Source: an uncultured Desulfospira sp. (GTDB taxonomy: Bacteria; Desulfobacterota; Desulfobacteria; Desulfobacterales; Desulfobacteraceae). Taken from it: 64,000 nucleotides of DNA. The stretch covers positions 2,336,001 to 2,400,000 of the forward strand of contig OY760175.1 in the NCBI GenBank assembly GCA_963663165.1, given 5' to 3'. The position numbers were made by a program, and so were the translations under genes. Positions 1,503 through 6,611 of this stretch are shown in pieces (within the stretch, counting starts at the first letter, position 1; every line of letters begins with the position of its first letter). Under the pieces are notes generated by a model that did not search any database, was not told where the DNA came from, and saw only the letters and a program-made list of their open reading frames with translations.

Positions 1503-1524
1503 CAACATAAGTCTATTTATGTTG
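1503..1524. repeat. Inverted repeat CAACATAA-gtctat-TTATGTTG (tyrosine recombinase core-like site)
   Basis: Perfect 8 bp arms around a 6 bp spacer, read directly. Confidence 0.65.
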
Positions 1525-1608
1525 TGTGCAACCTTTGCCAGTAAAGGCGTTGACTTCTTATGTCATTGAGTGCTCGGATCGGAAATTCGGAAGATCAAAT
1601 TAAGCTTT

Positions 1609-1675
1609 TGAGGTGAAGACTACCTACGTAACATTGTCCGCTTTTCAGGTGAACGAACCCACCAGACTATCCTGT
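1609..1675 (+). repeat. Bipartite inter-module site, copy A
   Basis: TGAGGTGAAGACTAC-N40-AGACTATCCTGT. Confidence 0.7.
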
Positions 1676-1716
1676 AATTCAGGCTCGTTCCAATATCAAA
1701 AATGATGTCGCCGATA

Positions 1717-2759
1717 TTATTTTTTGCCTTTTATTTTCTTTGAGGTTTCTATTTGTTTTACCGCCTTATCGAAGTCGCTCAGTTCATTTTTTGAAGAGAT
1801 CAAACGCCGGGCATGAAATTTTTCATACTCATTTTCAGCCGTCTGCTTTGCCGATTCATGGGAAATTTTTCCCGCATGGTTCAAAATGTCCCGATCATTG
1901 ATCGAAAGAAAACCATCCAGCTTTTTAATCCAGTCTTCCATATACATGGGAATACGGCGCATGGCCTGGCCTTGTGCAAAAATAAGGTATTGTTCAACCA
2001 AATTATTTAAGGCCGCTAATTCGTCTTCATTGAGGTAATTTTTTGCAATGACAACGTCCTGCTTGCGGACCTTTGTCCCCCGGTAATTGGTCAGCCCCAT
2101 ATTGGGTTTATCAGCATCAACCCGGGAATGAATAATCTCAGCGGCTGTTTGGCCGGTTATGGCCCAGTGCATCTTGTTTTGGACTGTCTTAAAAAATGAA
2201 ATACTGATATCCATGGTGGGATCATAATCTATGCTGTGGCATAAATATCGGTAATTTTCTGATAGAACCGACGCTCGGACGTCCGTATATCCTGAATCCG
2301 CCGTTCCAGTTCCTCAAAGTAATCAAAGGGAAGGTCTGGATTTTTCAAACGGTCATCGTCCAGAGTAAACCCTTTGATAATATATTCCTTGAGCCGTTCC
2401 GTTGCCCAGATACGAAAACGGGTGGCCACACGGCTTTTTACCCGGTAACCAACGGATATGATCATATCCAGATTATAGTAATCCAGCAGGCGCTTTACGT
2501 CTCGGTTCCCTTCCCTGCGAACCGTCAAATATTTTTTGACAGTTGCCTCCGGCGCCAACTCACTTTCTTCATAAATTGAATTAATATGATGGCTTATATT
2601 CTGCTTTGAACTTTGAAACAGATCTGCCATCAACTGCTGGGTTAACCATACAGATTCATCCTCAATCCGGACATCTAACTTAAGCCGGCCATCTTCGTCC
2701 TGATAGACCAAAAACTGTCCTTTGGATGGTGTGTTTTCTTGCGGTGTGTCCCCGGCCAT
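1717..2759 (-). pseudogene. rhuM: RhuM-family protein split by a 1 bp frameshift
   Basis: ORFs 2229-2759 and 1717-2214 are the two halves (YYNLDMIISVGYRV, IRTSERRFYQK, TVQNKMHWA). Adding one base near 2236 restores DIYATSIDYDP. Confidence 0.85.
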
Positions 2760-2970
2760 TAATCAGTCTCCCATATTTCTTATAAACTCCGGGCCATCCT
2801 ACTTACCCGCCTGCATTTAAATATGGCACCCCGAATTGCACCTATTATTAAGAGTGTTATTCTAATTTTATTGTACACGCTAAGCCGACATCAGAACAGC
2901 ATACGTTTTAAATTATTTGCACTGTTAGGTGAGTTGATATGAAAAATTCGGCAGCCATGATAGAGACTTT

Positions 2971-3037
2971 TGAAGCGAGGACTACTTATTCGATCGGTTT
3001 TGTTTTTCAATAGACAATTGCCATAGACTTTCCCTGT
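2971..3037 (+). repeat. Bipartite inter-module site, copy B
   Basis: TGAAGCGAGGACTAC-N39-AGACTTTCCCTGT. Confidence 0.7.
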
Positions 3038-3157
3038 TACTCCTGAGCATTTCTATAGTAGACATAAAGGCATTAGATCAATACAAAGATTGACAATTAT
3101 TGTATTTTGACTATTATGATATGTAGTTGTTTTTATTTAAAGAAGAGGAGGGCAGAT

Positions 3158-3406
3158 ATGCATATCTCATTGACCCCTGAGCTTGAAAACACAGTTAAAC
3201 AAAAAGTAGCATCAGGTTTTTATAACAACGCAAGTGAAGTTATTCGGGATGCTCTGCGGTTCTGGGAAAAAAACGAAGAATTGGTTCAGCATATGAAACT
3301 TGAATTGTTAAAAGAACGCCTGGCGACTGGTGCTGAGGAAGCCAGACAAGGAAAATTTGTGGCGCAGTCTGTAAGCGAAATTATTGATGAGGCCAGGGAT
3401 GCCTGA
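3158..3406 (+). CDS. parD: Type II antitoxin, ParD family (ribbon-helix-helix)
   Basis: MHISLTPELE...SGFYNNASEVIRDALR. GAGGAGG SD lies before ATG 3158. Confidence 0.9.
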   Translation: MHISLTPELENTVKQKVASGFYNNASEVIRDALRFWEKNEELVQHMKLELLKERLATGAEEARQGKFVAQSVSEIIDEARDA

Positions 3407-3692
3407 ATACCGTCTGACGCCTTCGGCAAAATCAGATTTGATTGAAATTTGGAATTATACTGTTCAAACATGGGGTGAGAAACAAGCTGACAAATATCTT
3501 CAATATATTGAAGATACGCTTAATGAACTCGCTGCCAATCCTGGGCTTGGTAGGCAGCGACCGGAAATCTGTCCAGGATATTATTCCTTTCCAGCGCGAA
3601 AACACATAATCTTCTATCTTAACTCAGGCCGTCACATTGATATCATTGGTATCTTACATGGAAAAATGGATATTGATAAAAACTTAATGTGA
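3399..3692 (+). CDS. parE: Type II toxin, RelE/ParE family
   Basis: YRLTPSAKSDLIEIWNYTVQTWG...HIIFY...IIGILH. Overlaps the antitoxin stop. Confidence 0.9.
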   Translation: MPEYRLTPSAKSDLIEIWNYTVQTWGEKQADKYLQYIEDTLNELAANPGLGRQRPEICPGYYSFPARKHIIFYLNSGRHIDIIGILHGKMDIDKNLM

Positions 3693-3757
3693 GGTGTGGA
3701 CTACTCGTCTGGCAGATCTAATTTTTTAACCGGATGAATACCCAAGACTATCCCTGT
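3690..3757 (+). repeat. Bipartite inter-module site, copy C
   Basis: TGAGGTGTGGACTAC-N40-AGACTATCCCTGT. Begins at the parE stop codon. Confidence 0.7.
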
Positions 3758-3783
3758 TTCATATCGGTGCTTGTATCTTTTAT

Positions 3784-3818
3784 TTGACTTTCTGTATTCG
3801 AACGATTACATATTCAAT
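3784..3818 (+). promoter_or_regulatory. Putative promoter/operator of the toxin-first TA pair
   Basis: TTGACT at 3784, then the imperfect palindrome TGTATTCG-aa-CGATTACA (3793-3810) just before ATG 3819. No SD is visible. Confidence 0.45.
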
Positions 3819-4115
3819 ATGTACATAGTTAAAACATTACCCGAATTTGACAAATGGCTTGACAGCTTGAAAGACCGTATAACAAGGCTTCGCCTAAGCC
3901 GCCGTCTTGATAAAGCACAGCGTGGCAACCTTGGTGATGTGAAGCCTGTTGGAGAAGGTGTCTTTGAGATGAGGGAACATTTTGGTCCGGGCTGGCGGAT
4001 GTATTACACCAAGCGGGGAGACACTTTGATCGTCATGCTTGGTGGGGGAGATAAGAGCAGCCAGGAAAGTGATATTGCCAGGGCCAAACAGCGGGAAACC
4101 ACTTTGGAGGATTGA
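3819..4115 (+). CDS. Addiction module killer protein (HI1419-like, RelE/HigB superfamily)
   Basis: EFDKWLDSLKD...GNLGDVKPVGEGVFEMREHFGPGWRMYY...LGGGDKSSQESDI. Confidence 0.9.
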   Translation: MYIVKTLPEFDKWLDSLKDRITRLRLSRRLDKAQRGNLGDVKPVGEGVFEMREHFGPGWRMYYTKRGDTLIVMLGGGDKSSQESDIARAKQRETTLED

Positions 4116-4118
4116 ATT

Positions 4119-4421
4119 ATGAAAAAACGAATTGCAGACCTGCCGGATTTTGATATGGCACAGCAGCTTAAAAGCGAAGAAGATATTGCTGCTTACATCA
4201 CCATGGTGATTGAAGATGGGGATGCTGCCGAATTAGCCCATGCCCTGGGGGTAGCTGCCAAGGCCCGTGGTATGAGCGAAGTTGCTAAATTGACAGGAAT
4301 AACCCGCGAAGCTTTGTATAAAGCGCTTAAGCCAAACGCCAAACCTCGATTTGACACGATTAACAAGGTGTGTGCGGCCCTCGGAGTTCGCCTGGTAGCT
4401 CAGCCTGCCAAATCTCATTAA
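4119..4421 (+). CDS. Addiction module antidote protein (HI1420-like HTH)
   Basis: FDMAQQL...ALGVAAKARGMSEVA...REALYKAL...PRFDTI. Confidence 0.9.
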   Translation: MKKRIADLPDFDMAQQLKSEEDIAAYITMVIEDGDAAELAHALGVAAKARGMSEVAKLTGITREALYKALKPNAKPRFDTINKVCAALGVRLVAQPAKSH

Positions 4422-4518
4422 GGATTTCAACAACAGTGCCGACTTGCCCAATCACCAGCCCTCGTTTAGATAAATTTTCAACAAGTGCTACAACATCATA
4501 AATCTTTATATTTTCATT
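4420..4518 (-). pseudogene. DUF4926-like protein, N-terminal remnant
   Basis: Manual translation gives IKIYDVVALVENLSKRGLVIGQVGTVVEIL. There is no in-frame ATG, and similarity ends at the antitoxin stop. Confidence 0.65.
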
Positions 4519-4531
4519 ATTCTACCTGCCT

Positions 4532-4699
4532 TTATTTGACGTAACAAGTTGTTAGTCTTGGGTTTGATTCATTTCGTTTAATAATCCAACTTGTGCGTAC
4601 AACAGCTTTTTTCGATTCATATTGAATTTCGATATCGGCTGTGTAGCGTTGACCATATTGATCCTGTTCACCTTTTAGACAATCTACTTTTATCATCAT
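4532..4699 (-). pseudogene. DUF6883-like protein, C-terminal remnant (55 aa)
   Basis: Manual translation gives MMIKVDCLKGEQDQYGQRYTADIEIQYESKKAVVRTSWIIKRNESNPRLTTCYVK. Confidence 0.65.
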
Positions 4700-4709
4700 T
4701 GTTTTTATT

Positions 4710-5141
4710 CGATTTGATTACACCGCCATGGGAGACAATGTCAATTTAGCCTCCCGCCTTGAAGGGGCCAATAAAAATTACGGCACCACCATCCTGATAT
4801 CCGAATCCACCCGGGACCGGGTAAAAGATCAATACTTTTGCCGGTTTATTGACAAGGTTCAGGTCAAGGGCCGGCAGCAGCCGGAAAACCTTTTTGAACC
4901 CCTGTGCCAGGGCCGGCCGGCCCCTGAGGTCATAGAAAAAATAAAAACCTTTGAAACGGGCGTCACCGCCTATCAGCAGGGAAACTTCAAACAGGCCAAA
5001 GAGATCTTTTCTGCCCTGGATCAGGAGAATCCCTCCCAGCTTTACCTGTCCTATCTGAACCGGATCAATGGCTATCTGGAAACGGCCGTGCCTCCCAACT
5101 GGGACGGCACCGGGAGCGGCTGCCGATGGTCAACCGCTTAG
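4710..5141 (+). pseudogene. 3' fragment of a class III adenylate/guanylate cyclase
   Basis: RFDYTAMGDNVNLASRLEGANKNYGTTILISE...VKG...PPNWDG. The N-terminal catalytic part is absent and GC rises sharply at about 4710. Confidence 0.85.
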
Positions 5142-5159
5142 AGACCAAATAGAATTAGC

Positions 5160-6611
5160 CTAATTCCCTTCCTGATCGGAGATCAGGCGCAGCTTGCGCC
5201 ACAGCGCGGCCCGGCTGATGCCGAGAAGCTCGGCCGCCTTTGTTTTGTTGCCGCCGGTCATTTCAATGGCTTTGAGAATGTGGTTGTACTCCATTTGCTG
5301 GATGGTCAGAAAGGCGGCCTCTTCCTCTTGCAGCTCTTCAGGGGTTTTGACCCTGAGCCTGTCCGGCAGATGTTCAACCGCCATATCCTCTCCCCGGGCC
5401 CGCAAAAATGCGTTTTCAATGATGTGCTTGAGTTCCCGGACGTTTCCGGGGAAATCGTAGGATTTAAACGCCGACAGCACCTCATCGGGCAGGGTGATCA
5501 TTCTGCCGAATTCCTGATTCAGCCGGTCCAGAAAAAACCGGCAAAGCAATGCCAGATCGTCTGTGCGCCGGCGCAAGGGGGGGATCTCAATTTCCATGGC
5601 CCGCATCCGGCTGAAAAGATCCATGGGAAATTTCCCCTCCTTAACCCTTTCCTGAATGTTCTGCTGGGCTGCCACAATAAAGCGGATATCCATGGAAAAA
5701 TCAGAAGTATCCCTCTTTTTGTCTATGATCCCGAGCATTTCACGCTGTATATCCTCAGGCATATTTTCAATATGATCCAGCAGGATGGTTCCGGAAAAGA
5801 CCGGGGGTTTTTCCAGACCGGATTTGGGATTAAAGGAAACCGGTTTAGGGGTATCATCATAGGCCGCCACCAACTCGGCAAAGCGGAAATCTTTGCTGAA
5901 ACATCCGCAGTCAAATGCCAGGAATTTTTGATGCCGGCGGCGGCTCAAGGCATGGATGGTCCGGGCCGCCAGTTCCTTTCCCGTGCCGATTTCACCCTTA
6001 ATAATGACGGCGCAGTCCATTTCGGCAATCCTTCTGATATTTTTTTTCAGTCGAAGGACCTGCTCGGTTTCGCCCACGATTTCCAATAAAGGGCCGGTTG
6101 CCCCGGGCCGGTTGCCCGTATCCGTCCCTGCCGAACTTAAGCCGTCACCCGGATATTCATGGGCGGCTGAAATTTCCACCCGGCCCGATGATCCGGCCGC
6201 CGGTGCATTGTTTCTTGACGGGGACGGCTTGATGACGATGGTTTTCCCCTCATCTTCCCAATGTTTGATCATGTCCCACAACCCGCCCATGGAATCCTTT
6301 TCAACGTATACGGATCCTAAAGCTTCGGTGGCCTGCTTAACCTTTTCATTGCCGTAACCGGTCAAAAGGACGGTTCTCAAATCGGGCAGAATTTCCTTTA
6401 ACTTTGTAATCGTCACCAGGCCGTCCATATCCGGCATTTTCAGATCCACAATGGCCAGATCAATGTGTATCCCCCTTGCAATCTCGAGTGCCTGAAGGCC
6501 GGACAAGGCCTTTAACGGGGTAAGCCCCAAAAGGGAAATCCGCTTGGATATGGAATCGAGCAGCCGCTCCTCATCATCCACCAGCAATATGGTCTTCTCT
6601 GATAAGGTCAC
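5160..6611 (-). CDS. NtrC-like response regulator (REC, degenerate AAA+, Fis-type HTH)
   Basis: REC (LVDDE, DLKMP), GEIGTGKE, FPGNVRELKH and C-terminal GNKTKAAELLGISR. No GAFTGA. Confidence 0.9.
   Translation of the reverse strand: MTLSEKTILLVDDEERLLDSISKRISLLGLTPLKALSGLQALEIARGIHIDLAIVDLKMPDMDGLVTITKLKEILPDLRTVLLTGYGNEKVKQATEALGSVYVEKDSMGGLWDMIKHWEDEGKTIVIKPSPSRNNAPAAGSSGRVEISAAHEYPGDGLSSAGTDTGNRPGATGPLLEIVGETEQVLRLKKNIRRIAEMDCAVIIKGEIGTGKELAARTIHALSRRRHQKFLAFDCGCFSKDFRFAELVAAYDDTPKPVSFNPKSGLEKPPVFSGTILLDHIENMPEDIQREMLGIIDKKRDTSDFSMDIRFIVAAQQNIQERVKEGKFPMDLFSRMRAMEIEIPPLRRRTDDLALLCRFFLDRLNQEFGRMITLPDEVLSAFKSYDFPGNVRELKHIIENAFLRARGEDMAVEHLPDRLRVKTPEELQEEEAAFLTIQQMEYNHILKAIEMTGGNKTKAAELLGISRAALWRKLRLISDQEGN

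Follow-up and report, generated by a model that had tools for sequence, protein, structure and literature searches.

An apparently undescribed two-ended cassette system for defence genes in Desulfobacteraceae

The question raised by this locus is what three similar sites are doing between small gene modules of a sulfate reducer. The sites, here named A, B and C, lie in a stretch of 64,000 nucleotides (hereafter the window) of an uncultured Desulfospira sp. (assembly GCA_963663165.1, contig OY760175.1), which corresponds to G000:2336001-2400000, G000 being the source genome of 6.74 Mb in one contig. An initial annotation, made from the letters of the window, read them as recombination sites of an integron-like system that accretes cassettes with toxin-antitoxin (TA) and defence cargo. 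The three repeats are real joints at which TA and anti-phage modules differ among related sulfate reducers. The two-ended defence-gene cassette system to which we assign them is real, extends across the family Desulfobacteraceae and is apparently undescribed; A, B and C represent one of its two end types, and they are probably double-stranded DNA recombination sites of a small Xer-like recombinase.

Site A is found at 1609-1675, B at 2971-3037 and C at 3690-3757, all on the forward strand, with scores of 31.2, 40.2 and 40.4 bits on a two-box matrix. Above a threshold of 30 bits this matrix detected 19 sites in G000, the maximum in three shuffled genomes, taken as control, being 29.2; the repeated sites are not a product of chance. 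A gapped-motif search of related genomes, which the initial annotation had proposed, was carried out on 121 Desulfobacteraceae genomes, where a strict pattern gave 146 matches in 39 genomes, compared with a single match when the pattern was read backwards as control. The positions, the common orientation, the left boxes and the T-tract had been described correctly, and so had the distance of 39-40 bp between the boxes (40, 39 and 40 bp in A, B and C) and the start of C on the parE stop codon (TGA, 3690-3692). The between-box spacers had been called unrelated except for the T-tract; the T-tract is there, but the spacers also share a weak consensus, and they are specific to their module (background identity 0.46).

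We refer to sites of this type as C ends. They consist of a GACTAY box, a GACTW arm, the 7-mer TCCCTGT (shortened in A to the 6-bp TCCTGT) and a degenerate inverted arm, and the distance from the GACTAY box to the GACTW arm is 46-47 bp in 76 of the 91 ends where it is measurable. The inverted arm had been missed by the earlier description, which was right about the boxes: directly right of TCCCTGT,.A.TC occurs in 52 of 101 ends against 2.1 expected, and compared with downstream controls the inverted outer arm stands out both in 72 flanks of C ends (p=9e-27) and in 38 flanks of the second end type described below (p=2e-20). The core layout is GACTW-7 bp-NANTC, and by its resemblance to known cores, such as sfx (PMC11852207) and the IRS of TnpI (PMC2847244), the C end may be viewed as a tyrosine-recombinase core with a 7-bp spacer and one accessory direct repeat.

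Two direct boxes with a T-tract between them could also belong to a promoter, to the operator of a regulator, to a hairpin of the attC kind or to a structured RNA, instead of a double-stranded crossover site, and in some between-box spacers hairpins can indeed be drawn by eye. These hairpins were not upheld when 101 ends were folded as single strands: no signal appeared on either strand (mean fold z -0.09), which also disposes of the attC-like structure that the initial annotation had wished to see examined, and a search of Rfam with the site gave no match. Concerning regulation, the next gene points away from the C end in only 27 of 81 cases and toward it in 49, the gene strands being +43/-31 on the inner side and +27/-49 on the outer side. 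Together with the way homology stops at the site, as reported in the next paragraph, these results largely refute this reading, which we regard as highly improbable.

To what extent do the sites separate modules? We compared 101 distinct C ends, exact duplicates having been merged beforehand, and counted downstream DNA as shared when at least 200 bp were in common. All 31 pairs of ends with common downstream DNA had unrelated upstream cargo, and all 30 pairs with common upstream cargo were followed by unrelated downstream DNA, so that homology between modules stopped at the site in 61 of 61 pairs, although these pairs form cliques and are not independent events. Downstream homology started no more than 6 bp from the 7-mer in 12 of the 31 pairs, and exchange falls at the spacer. 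The joints of the window itself gave the same picture in contigs from four public runs of two studies, one of which may be the source sample: contigs of runs X1 and X7 depart from the window at 3037 and a contig of X3 at 3039, just at the end of B, and one contig of X7 enters the sequence of the window precisely at 3758, the first position after C. Within G000, the segment from A through rhuM to B has a second copy at G000:4445204-4446761, where B is followed by vapBC instead of the parDE of the window, and the two copies diverge directly past B.

The modules are correspondingly mobile in their combinations. DUF4160/DUF2442, hicAB, relE and parDE modules recur behind different ends, arrays of varying gene order, as had been anticipated, are present across Desulfobacteraceae, and three module starts that have no C end upstream nonetheless follow TGT. 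In a genome of the same genus (G012), three ends of the second type and one C end have the outer flank known from G000, together with a different inner arm and different cargo; one such orthologous locus carries 1.2 kb in one genome and a 22-kb bacteriophage exclusion (BREX) island in the other. The assignment of the sites as module joints appears to us, from these comparisons, well supported.

The initial annotation knew only one kind of end. This picture was right concerning the C ends and incomplete, as it lacked an oppositely oriented end that brackets each island. This second site type, the T end, was first found in DNA beside recombinase fragments; it has the boxes and the spacing of a C end, a different 7-mer (TTATTAA) and the opposite facing, and its strict pattern gave 78 matches in 41 of the 121 genomes, against 4 in the control. 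To evaluate spacer fidelity we used hidden Markov models (HMMs) of the inner arms, built without the 7-mers, and considered as strong the matches of at least 20 bits: TCCCTGT came next in 78 of 99 strong C-inner matches and TTATTAA in 32 of 41 strong T-inner matches, fractions that lean high because the training arms and many loci had been gathered via the 7-mers. Many of the remaining C-inner matches were one or two letters or an indel away from TCCCTGT and some were truncated ends, while swapped 7-mers were seen in none of the 99 C-inner and 41 T-inner matches; the two spacers are fixed. A few ends with the usual arms carry other 7-mers, namely six cases of one type in genome G049 (locus L192 and five more) and single ends at L084:15577 and L203:1122, which suggests further spacer classes.

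Concerning geometry, 48 of the 78 T ends have no strict C end within 35 kb, and of the 30 that do, 29 have it on the inward side in the opposite orientation, with cargo bracketed between the two. On 16 near-complete chromosomes this T...C bracketing was found at 22 of 40 T ends, compared with a mean of 0.47 and a maximum of 4 in 2000 random placements. Adjacent C ends form direct repeats in 30 of 31 pairs, and runs of them split the cargo into modules, each with its C end at the far side. The array of the window forms the right-hand part of an island of this kind, and the corresponding T end lies to the left of the window on the reverse strand (G000:2313277-2313344). T...C pairs enclose 1-30 kb of defence cargo, in agreement with the annotation's expectation of TA and defence genes: type I and type III restriction-modification (RM) systems, BREX, Zorya, DRT3, a Thoeris-like TIR protein and many TA pairs. 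PADLOC models were applied to 34 proteins overall, and of 26 large cargo proteins from islands of other genomes 21 matched such models (RM, BREX, Zorya, DRT3 and similar), the other five having no match at 1e-15.

Which enzyme could act on these ends? The annotation had placed a recombinase probably to the left of the window, and a candidate gene is present there, at G000:2317844-2318679 on the forward strand, 17-18 kb from the window and within the same island. Its product matches PF00589, the best library models being XerA/XerC-like and under cutoff; it has a core-binding (CB) and a catalytic domain with R-K-H-R-H-Y residues, as read by eye in the translation, and no arm-binding domain, and its in-frame relatives are 278 amino acids long. 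Nineteen of 49 loci of the recombinase family have an end within 5 kb, many of the misses being loci of 2-4 kb, and 23 of 24 ends within that distance obey one rule, with C on the same strand as the gene in 14 of 15 cases and T on the opposite strand in 9 of 9. Of 25 recombinase start regions, four have a T end that runs on into the promoter and lies 199-207 bp ahead of the ATG, seven have a C end 104-168 bp ahead of it, and 14 have neither within 300 bp. Scoring presence of the recombinase at E<=1e-30, strict ends occurred in 22 of 28 genomes with it and in 26 of 92 without, kin not being independent in this comparison. In G000, four of five recombinase loci lie within paired elements, one of these pairs having degenerate ends, although such elements make up 1.8% of the genome, and none of 15 other single recombinase loci does. 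On this evidence the small Xer-like recombinase is probably the enzyme of the sites.

A peculiarity of this gene is its start. In all 23 family copies that could be scored (25 loci are given) the ATG and the main open reading frame are in different frames, and the same holds for 24 of 27 scorable copies among 28 at the level of the order, two of these having uncertain starts. The out-of-frame start lies at a conserved A8/A9 run (G000:2317844-2318679; homologs L024-L053 and L269-L298), which the three in-frame order-level copies lack. Different lineages need frame correction in opposite directions, and for this reason transcriptional slippage seems to fit better than a -1 ribosomal shift.

In an alternative reading another enzyme, such as the three proteins of recombinase-in-trio (RIT) elements, XerCD or an unidentified recombinase, acts on the joints and the small recombinase is just frequent cargo. 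More than half of the genomes with ends have no recombinase gene, RITs are abundant in G000 with two of them inserted at LE arms (see below), and several of the loci combining a C end and a recombinase belong to one promoter lineage and are not independent. However, RIT ends have TTATG/CATAA arms and a 6-bp spacer identical at both ends, by which we rejected RIT as the enzyme of the sites, and XerC/XerD sites have 11-bp arms and 6-bp spacers (PMC13141974). Furthermore, the T end is continuous with the recombinase promoter at a fixed distance of about 200 bp, and by inspection, without clustering, no other gene was seen to recur across 20 element loci. We consider this alternative rather improbable. 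IntI was also discarded as a candidate: a true IntI is encoded at G000:4194663-4195604, about 80 kb from the nearest end found.

If the small recombinase is the enzyme, it would bind the GACTA boxes and exchange strands across the 7-mer, and exchange would require matching 7-bp spacers. A C x C event would excise a module as a circle, which could be added at any other C end; T x T events would be equivalent at T ends; and a C x C event combined with a T x T event would exchange the cargo of a whole island. Most islands, having no recombinase gene, would be moved in trans, and slippage on the conserved A-run would keep enzyme levels low. We favour such like-with-like exchange because both spacers are nearly invariant, because T-inner arms at shared loci are replaced and not stacked, and because the three module starts without an upstream C end follow TGT. 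Taken as a whole, this picture of a separate Desulfobacteraceae cassette system, in which one slippage-throttled recombinase serves two non-cross-reacting double-stranded sites, single TA or defence modules are added at one site type and whole anti-phage islands are swapped between the two as in a natural recombinase-mediated cassette exchange, is proposed tentatively, and we would put its chances at somewhat below even.

The main rival considers T as the left end and C as the right end of a unit similar to a transposon, which the same recombinase would excise in a T x C reaction that does not depend on matching spacers; the resulting circle would keep TCCCTGT and insert after TTAATAA or an existing TCCCTGT, and arrays would be stacked mini-elements with decayed left ends. 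The T...C bracketing with the recombinase gene just inside T agrees with this, outer flanks carry the T-tract of T-inner arms at +10 to +20 (p=1.4e-4), and SE and Tn554-type elements are described as moving with mismatched 6-7 bp spacers (PMC10214605; PMC12486829). One metagenome contig, L146, holds the joint that such a circle would leave, C-inner-TCCCTGT-T-inner, with 26.1 bits on the T side, the alternative joint not having been searched for in metagenomes. Yet the right spacer of SE and Tn554 comes from the left flank, and for this reason it varies, whereas here both are fixed and never swapped: a C-inner arm was followed by the T spacer, as a spacer from the donor's left flank would predict, in 0 of 99 strong matches. 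Joints of T with C were absent from 201 genomes of the order (a sample with only four other family members) and from 30 examined of 35 family matches, none of six C-type matches in 161 family genomes had a T-inner arm opposite, and outer flanks lack a second box (p>0.07). We judge T x C excision unlikely, to a lesser degree than the action of another enzyme.

Like-with-like exchange by the small recombinase has its own difficulties, which have to be weighed together. It does not explain how the first T...C pair reaches a naive locus, nor the single joint of L146, nor the C ends at seven different distances within the recombinase promoter. Excised circles or joints skipping a module were not seen at the sites in the four contig sets, contigs being a form of data that drops rare variants and the lack of skipping joints not being counted as evidence, and eleven comparative DNA searches revealed swapped cargo, larger indels and rearrangements in place of a clean empty target. 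Concerning the enzyme, a recombinase match at the threshold used is missing from 26 of the 48 genomes that carry strict ends, the single-contig genome G021 included, subgroups of 55-70% identity mostly lack an end within 5 kb, and the 1.5-kb flanks of 28 order-level homologs contain one GACT-end match against 2.95 in shuffles. No motif common to the flanks of distant homologs was found, and 16 larger loci of such homologs showed unrelated repeats only. The clearest are L300 and L306, from other families, where the recombinase homolog is flanked by differing intergenic repeats of distinct upstream and downstream types, which fits lineage-specific sites.

How far does the system extend? In 350 genomes of the phylum the strict motif did not exceed chance, with one match outside G000 compared with four in the backward control; none of 14 viral matches had inner-arm support, and no plasmid matched the recombinase at E<=1e-20. 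We found no description of the site system in the open-access literature, excluding supplements, of which those of PMC3711429 and PMC8138268 could list the recombinase family; the main text of PMC3711429 makes no mention of integrases or recombinases. The system would explain how defence islands of sulfate reducers, most of them without a recombinase gene, are built up and replaced, and exact island boundaries would allow the mining of new anti-phage genes. Since the same parDE pair exists both with ends (five loci with a C box at the stop codon) and without them (five loci), it also offers a testable case for the origin of cassettes outside integrons. If the proposed mechanism is true, there is a non-integron route for gathering and exchanging defence genes, and a recombinase of about 278 amino acids with two non-cross-reacting 7-bp spacers would be a useful part for genome engineering.

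The modules of the window can now be read from left to right. The rhuM module (1676-3037, forward) closes with B and contains a rhuM-family gene on the reverse strand (1717-2759; PADLOC PDC-S05), which the loss of 1 bp near 2234 has split; in the duplicate of the module (G000:4445204-4446693) the gene is intact, with 347 amino acids. The parD-parE module (3038-3757, forward; parD 3158-3406, parE 3399-3692) closes with C and is found elsewhere behind different C ends. The following HI1419/HI1420-like TA module (3758-4421, forward; Gp49-like 3819-4115, HI1420 4119-4421) has no downstream end of its own and is fused to an internal remnant of a DUF6883 module (4415-4711, reverse), 96% identical to a module lying between two C ends in genome G108. 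On the right side of the island, 4712-5160 holds a gene fragment without Pfam match, possibly, by resemblance, the C-terminal part of a cyclase-type gene, with paralogous pieces at G000:2810225 and 2935527. In G012 (C2:357298-398713) rearrangement has affected both flanks of this island, which are separated there by 38 kb.

To the left of A, the window begins with the right part of a RIT (1-1516, forward; whole element G000:2333441-2337516), which carries a GTCTAT spacer of its own at each end and to which three further copies in G000 are nearly identical. The initial annotation had it inserted into the array; its end lies instead 92 bp ahead of A, where a conserved arm starts, and not between cassettes, and it is a passenger. 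G000 has three RIT families of 4, 4 and 8 copies, with the spacers GTCTAT, TGGTAT and CTCCAA (loci G000:2333441-2337516, 2323141-2327874 and 2833221-2837355 plus copies), which mostly retain their own 6-bp spacer beside the end arms, the target arms being degenerate. One RIT copy lies about 2 kb from the integron integrase at G000:4194663-4195604.

The arm at which this RIT ends, LE (1512-1608, forward), is a conserved sequence of about 100 bp ahead of many C ends: a remnant of at least 10 bits precedes 26 of 101 C ends and none in shuffles, and outside the window, to its left, LE also accompanies a degenerate C end (G000:2317316-2317454). Another arm, RE (about 107 bp), follows five ends in G000. 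Where RE joins LE there is a core that resembles dif and has a 6-bp centre (G000:4301451-4301663 and 6731682-6736526; window 1512-1608), a third arm outside many T ends closes in a similar core, and RITs are inserted at two LE starts. An RE-LE-C mini-module might be the seed of new C ends. The arrangement LE-C-RE at G000:1289069-1289335 was considered as an empty element and rejected, a T end being found 1 kb farther on. Two T-like ends at G000:6321068 and 6333379 have an RIT-type arm immediately after them and 307 bp of flank in common, and enclose a cluster of primase-like and ATPase genes that is also present at G000:2319058-2322741. In two other genomes a C end is followed by sequence matching three apparent rRNA operons of G000 (L078:1560 in G046, L101:18232 in G037).

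It remains to place the system among known ones. The proposed integron-like accretion of cassettes was right concerning direct arrays of exchangeable modules with TA and anti-phage cargo. The site, however, is not attC-like, and the enzyme is not IntI. As in integrons, modules are swappable and carry the site at one end, and one site here abuts a stop codon. Integron attC sites end in RYYYAAC and GTTRRRY. The consensus found here has no such ends and no single-strand fold, and the candidate scores 51.1 bits on the integron-integrase model TIGR02249, whose cutoff is 265. Moreover, here there is a second, inverted end type, with many dispersed short arrays per genome and genes facing either way, and not one attI next to an integrase with cassettes in a single orientation (Pc was not searched for).

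The pdif modules of Acinetobacter, which depend on XerCD, are similar in that double-stranded sites flank TA modules and exchange through matching spacers, replacement through two spacer pairs included (PMC13141974). Their 11-bp XerC/XerD arms, variable 6-bp spacer and alternating inverse orientation are absent here. The arms are GACTA instead, the 7-bp spacers are of two fixed kinds, neighbouring C ends are direct in 30 of 31 pairs, and there is an accessory box as well as a candidate for a dedicated enzyme.

The elements SE, GInt, Tn554 and Gamma-Mobile-Trio (GMT) are likewise tyrosine-recombinase elements without conjugation genes; SE and Tn554 have different 6-7 bp sequences at their two ends (PMC10214605; PMC12486829) and GMT carries defence cargo (bioRxiv 10.1101/2023.03.28.534373). 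A circle formed with strand bias and without an empty site is a further mark of SE and GMT. However, they have three or four core genes including two recombinases, whereas here there is one small gene, and inspection of element loci, without clustering, showed no second recurring core gene. The right spacer of SE and Tn554 derives from the previous left flank, while here one of two fixed ends is serially repeated. The R64 shufflon, recombined by Rci at sfx sites, shares with the system a 7-bp spacer that is conserved and a pair of arms of which one is conserved and the other variable (PMC11852207). It inverts segments beside rci, whereas here neighbouring sites are direct, a recombinase gene is present in none of 20 element loci examined, modules recur across loci and genomes, and the ends have an accessory box upstream and come in a second class of spacer.

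In the TnpI/IRS system of Tn4430, which also depends on a tyrosine recombinase, accessory motifs lie beside the core and repeat its sequence directly (PMC2847244), but the IRS is a single site for cointegrate resolution, with two accessory repeats and a symmetrical core, and it forms no arrays and bounds no islands. The RITs of G000 resemble the system in that their spacer is fixed and their outer arms are degenerate, and differ by three recombinases, by their arms and by one 6-bp spacer repeated at both ends. The system is thus similar to integrons and dif modules in its working, and is distinct in the defining features of both, as well as of SE, Tn554 and GMT elements, RITs and shufflons.

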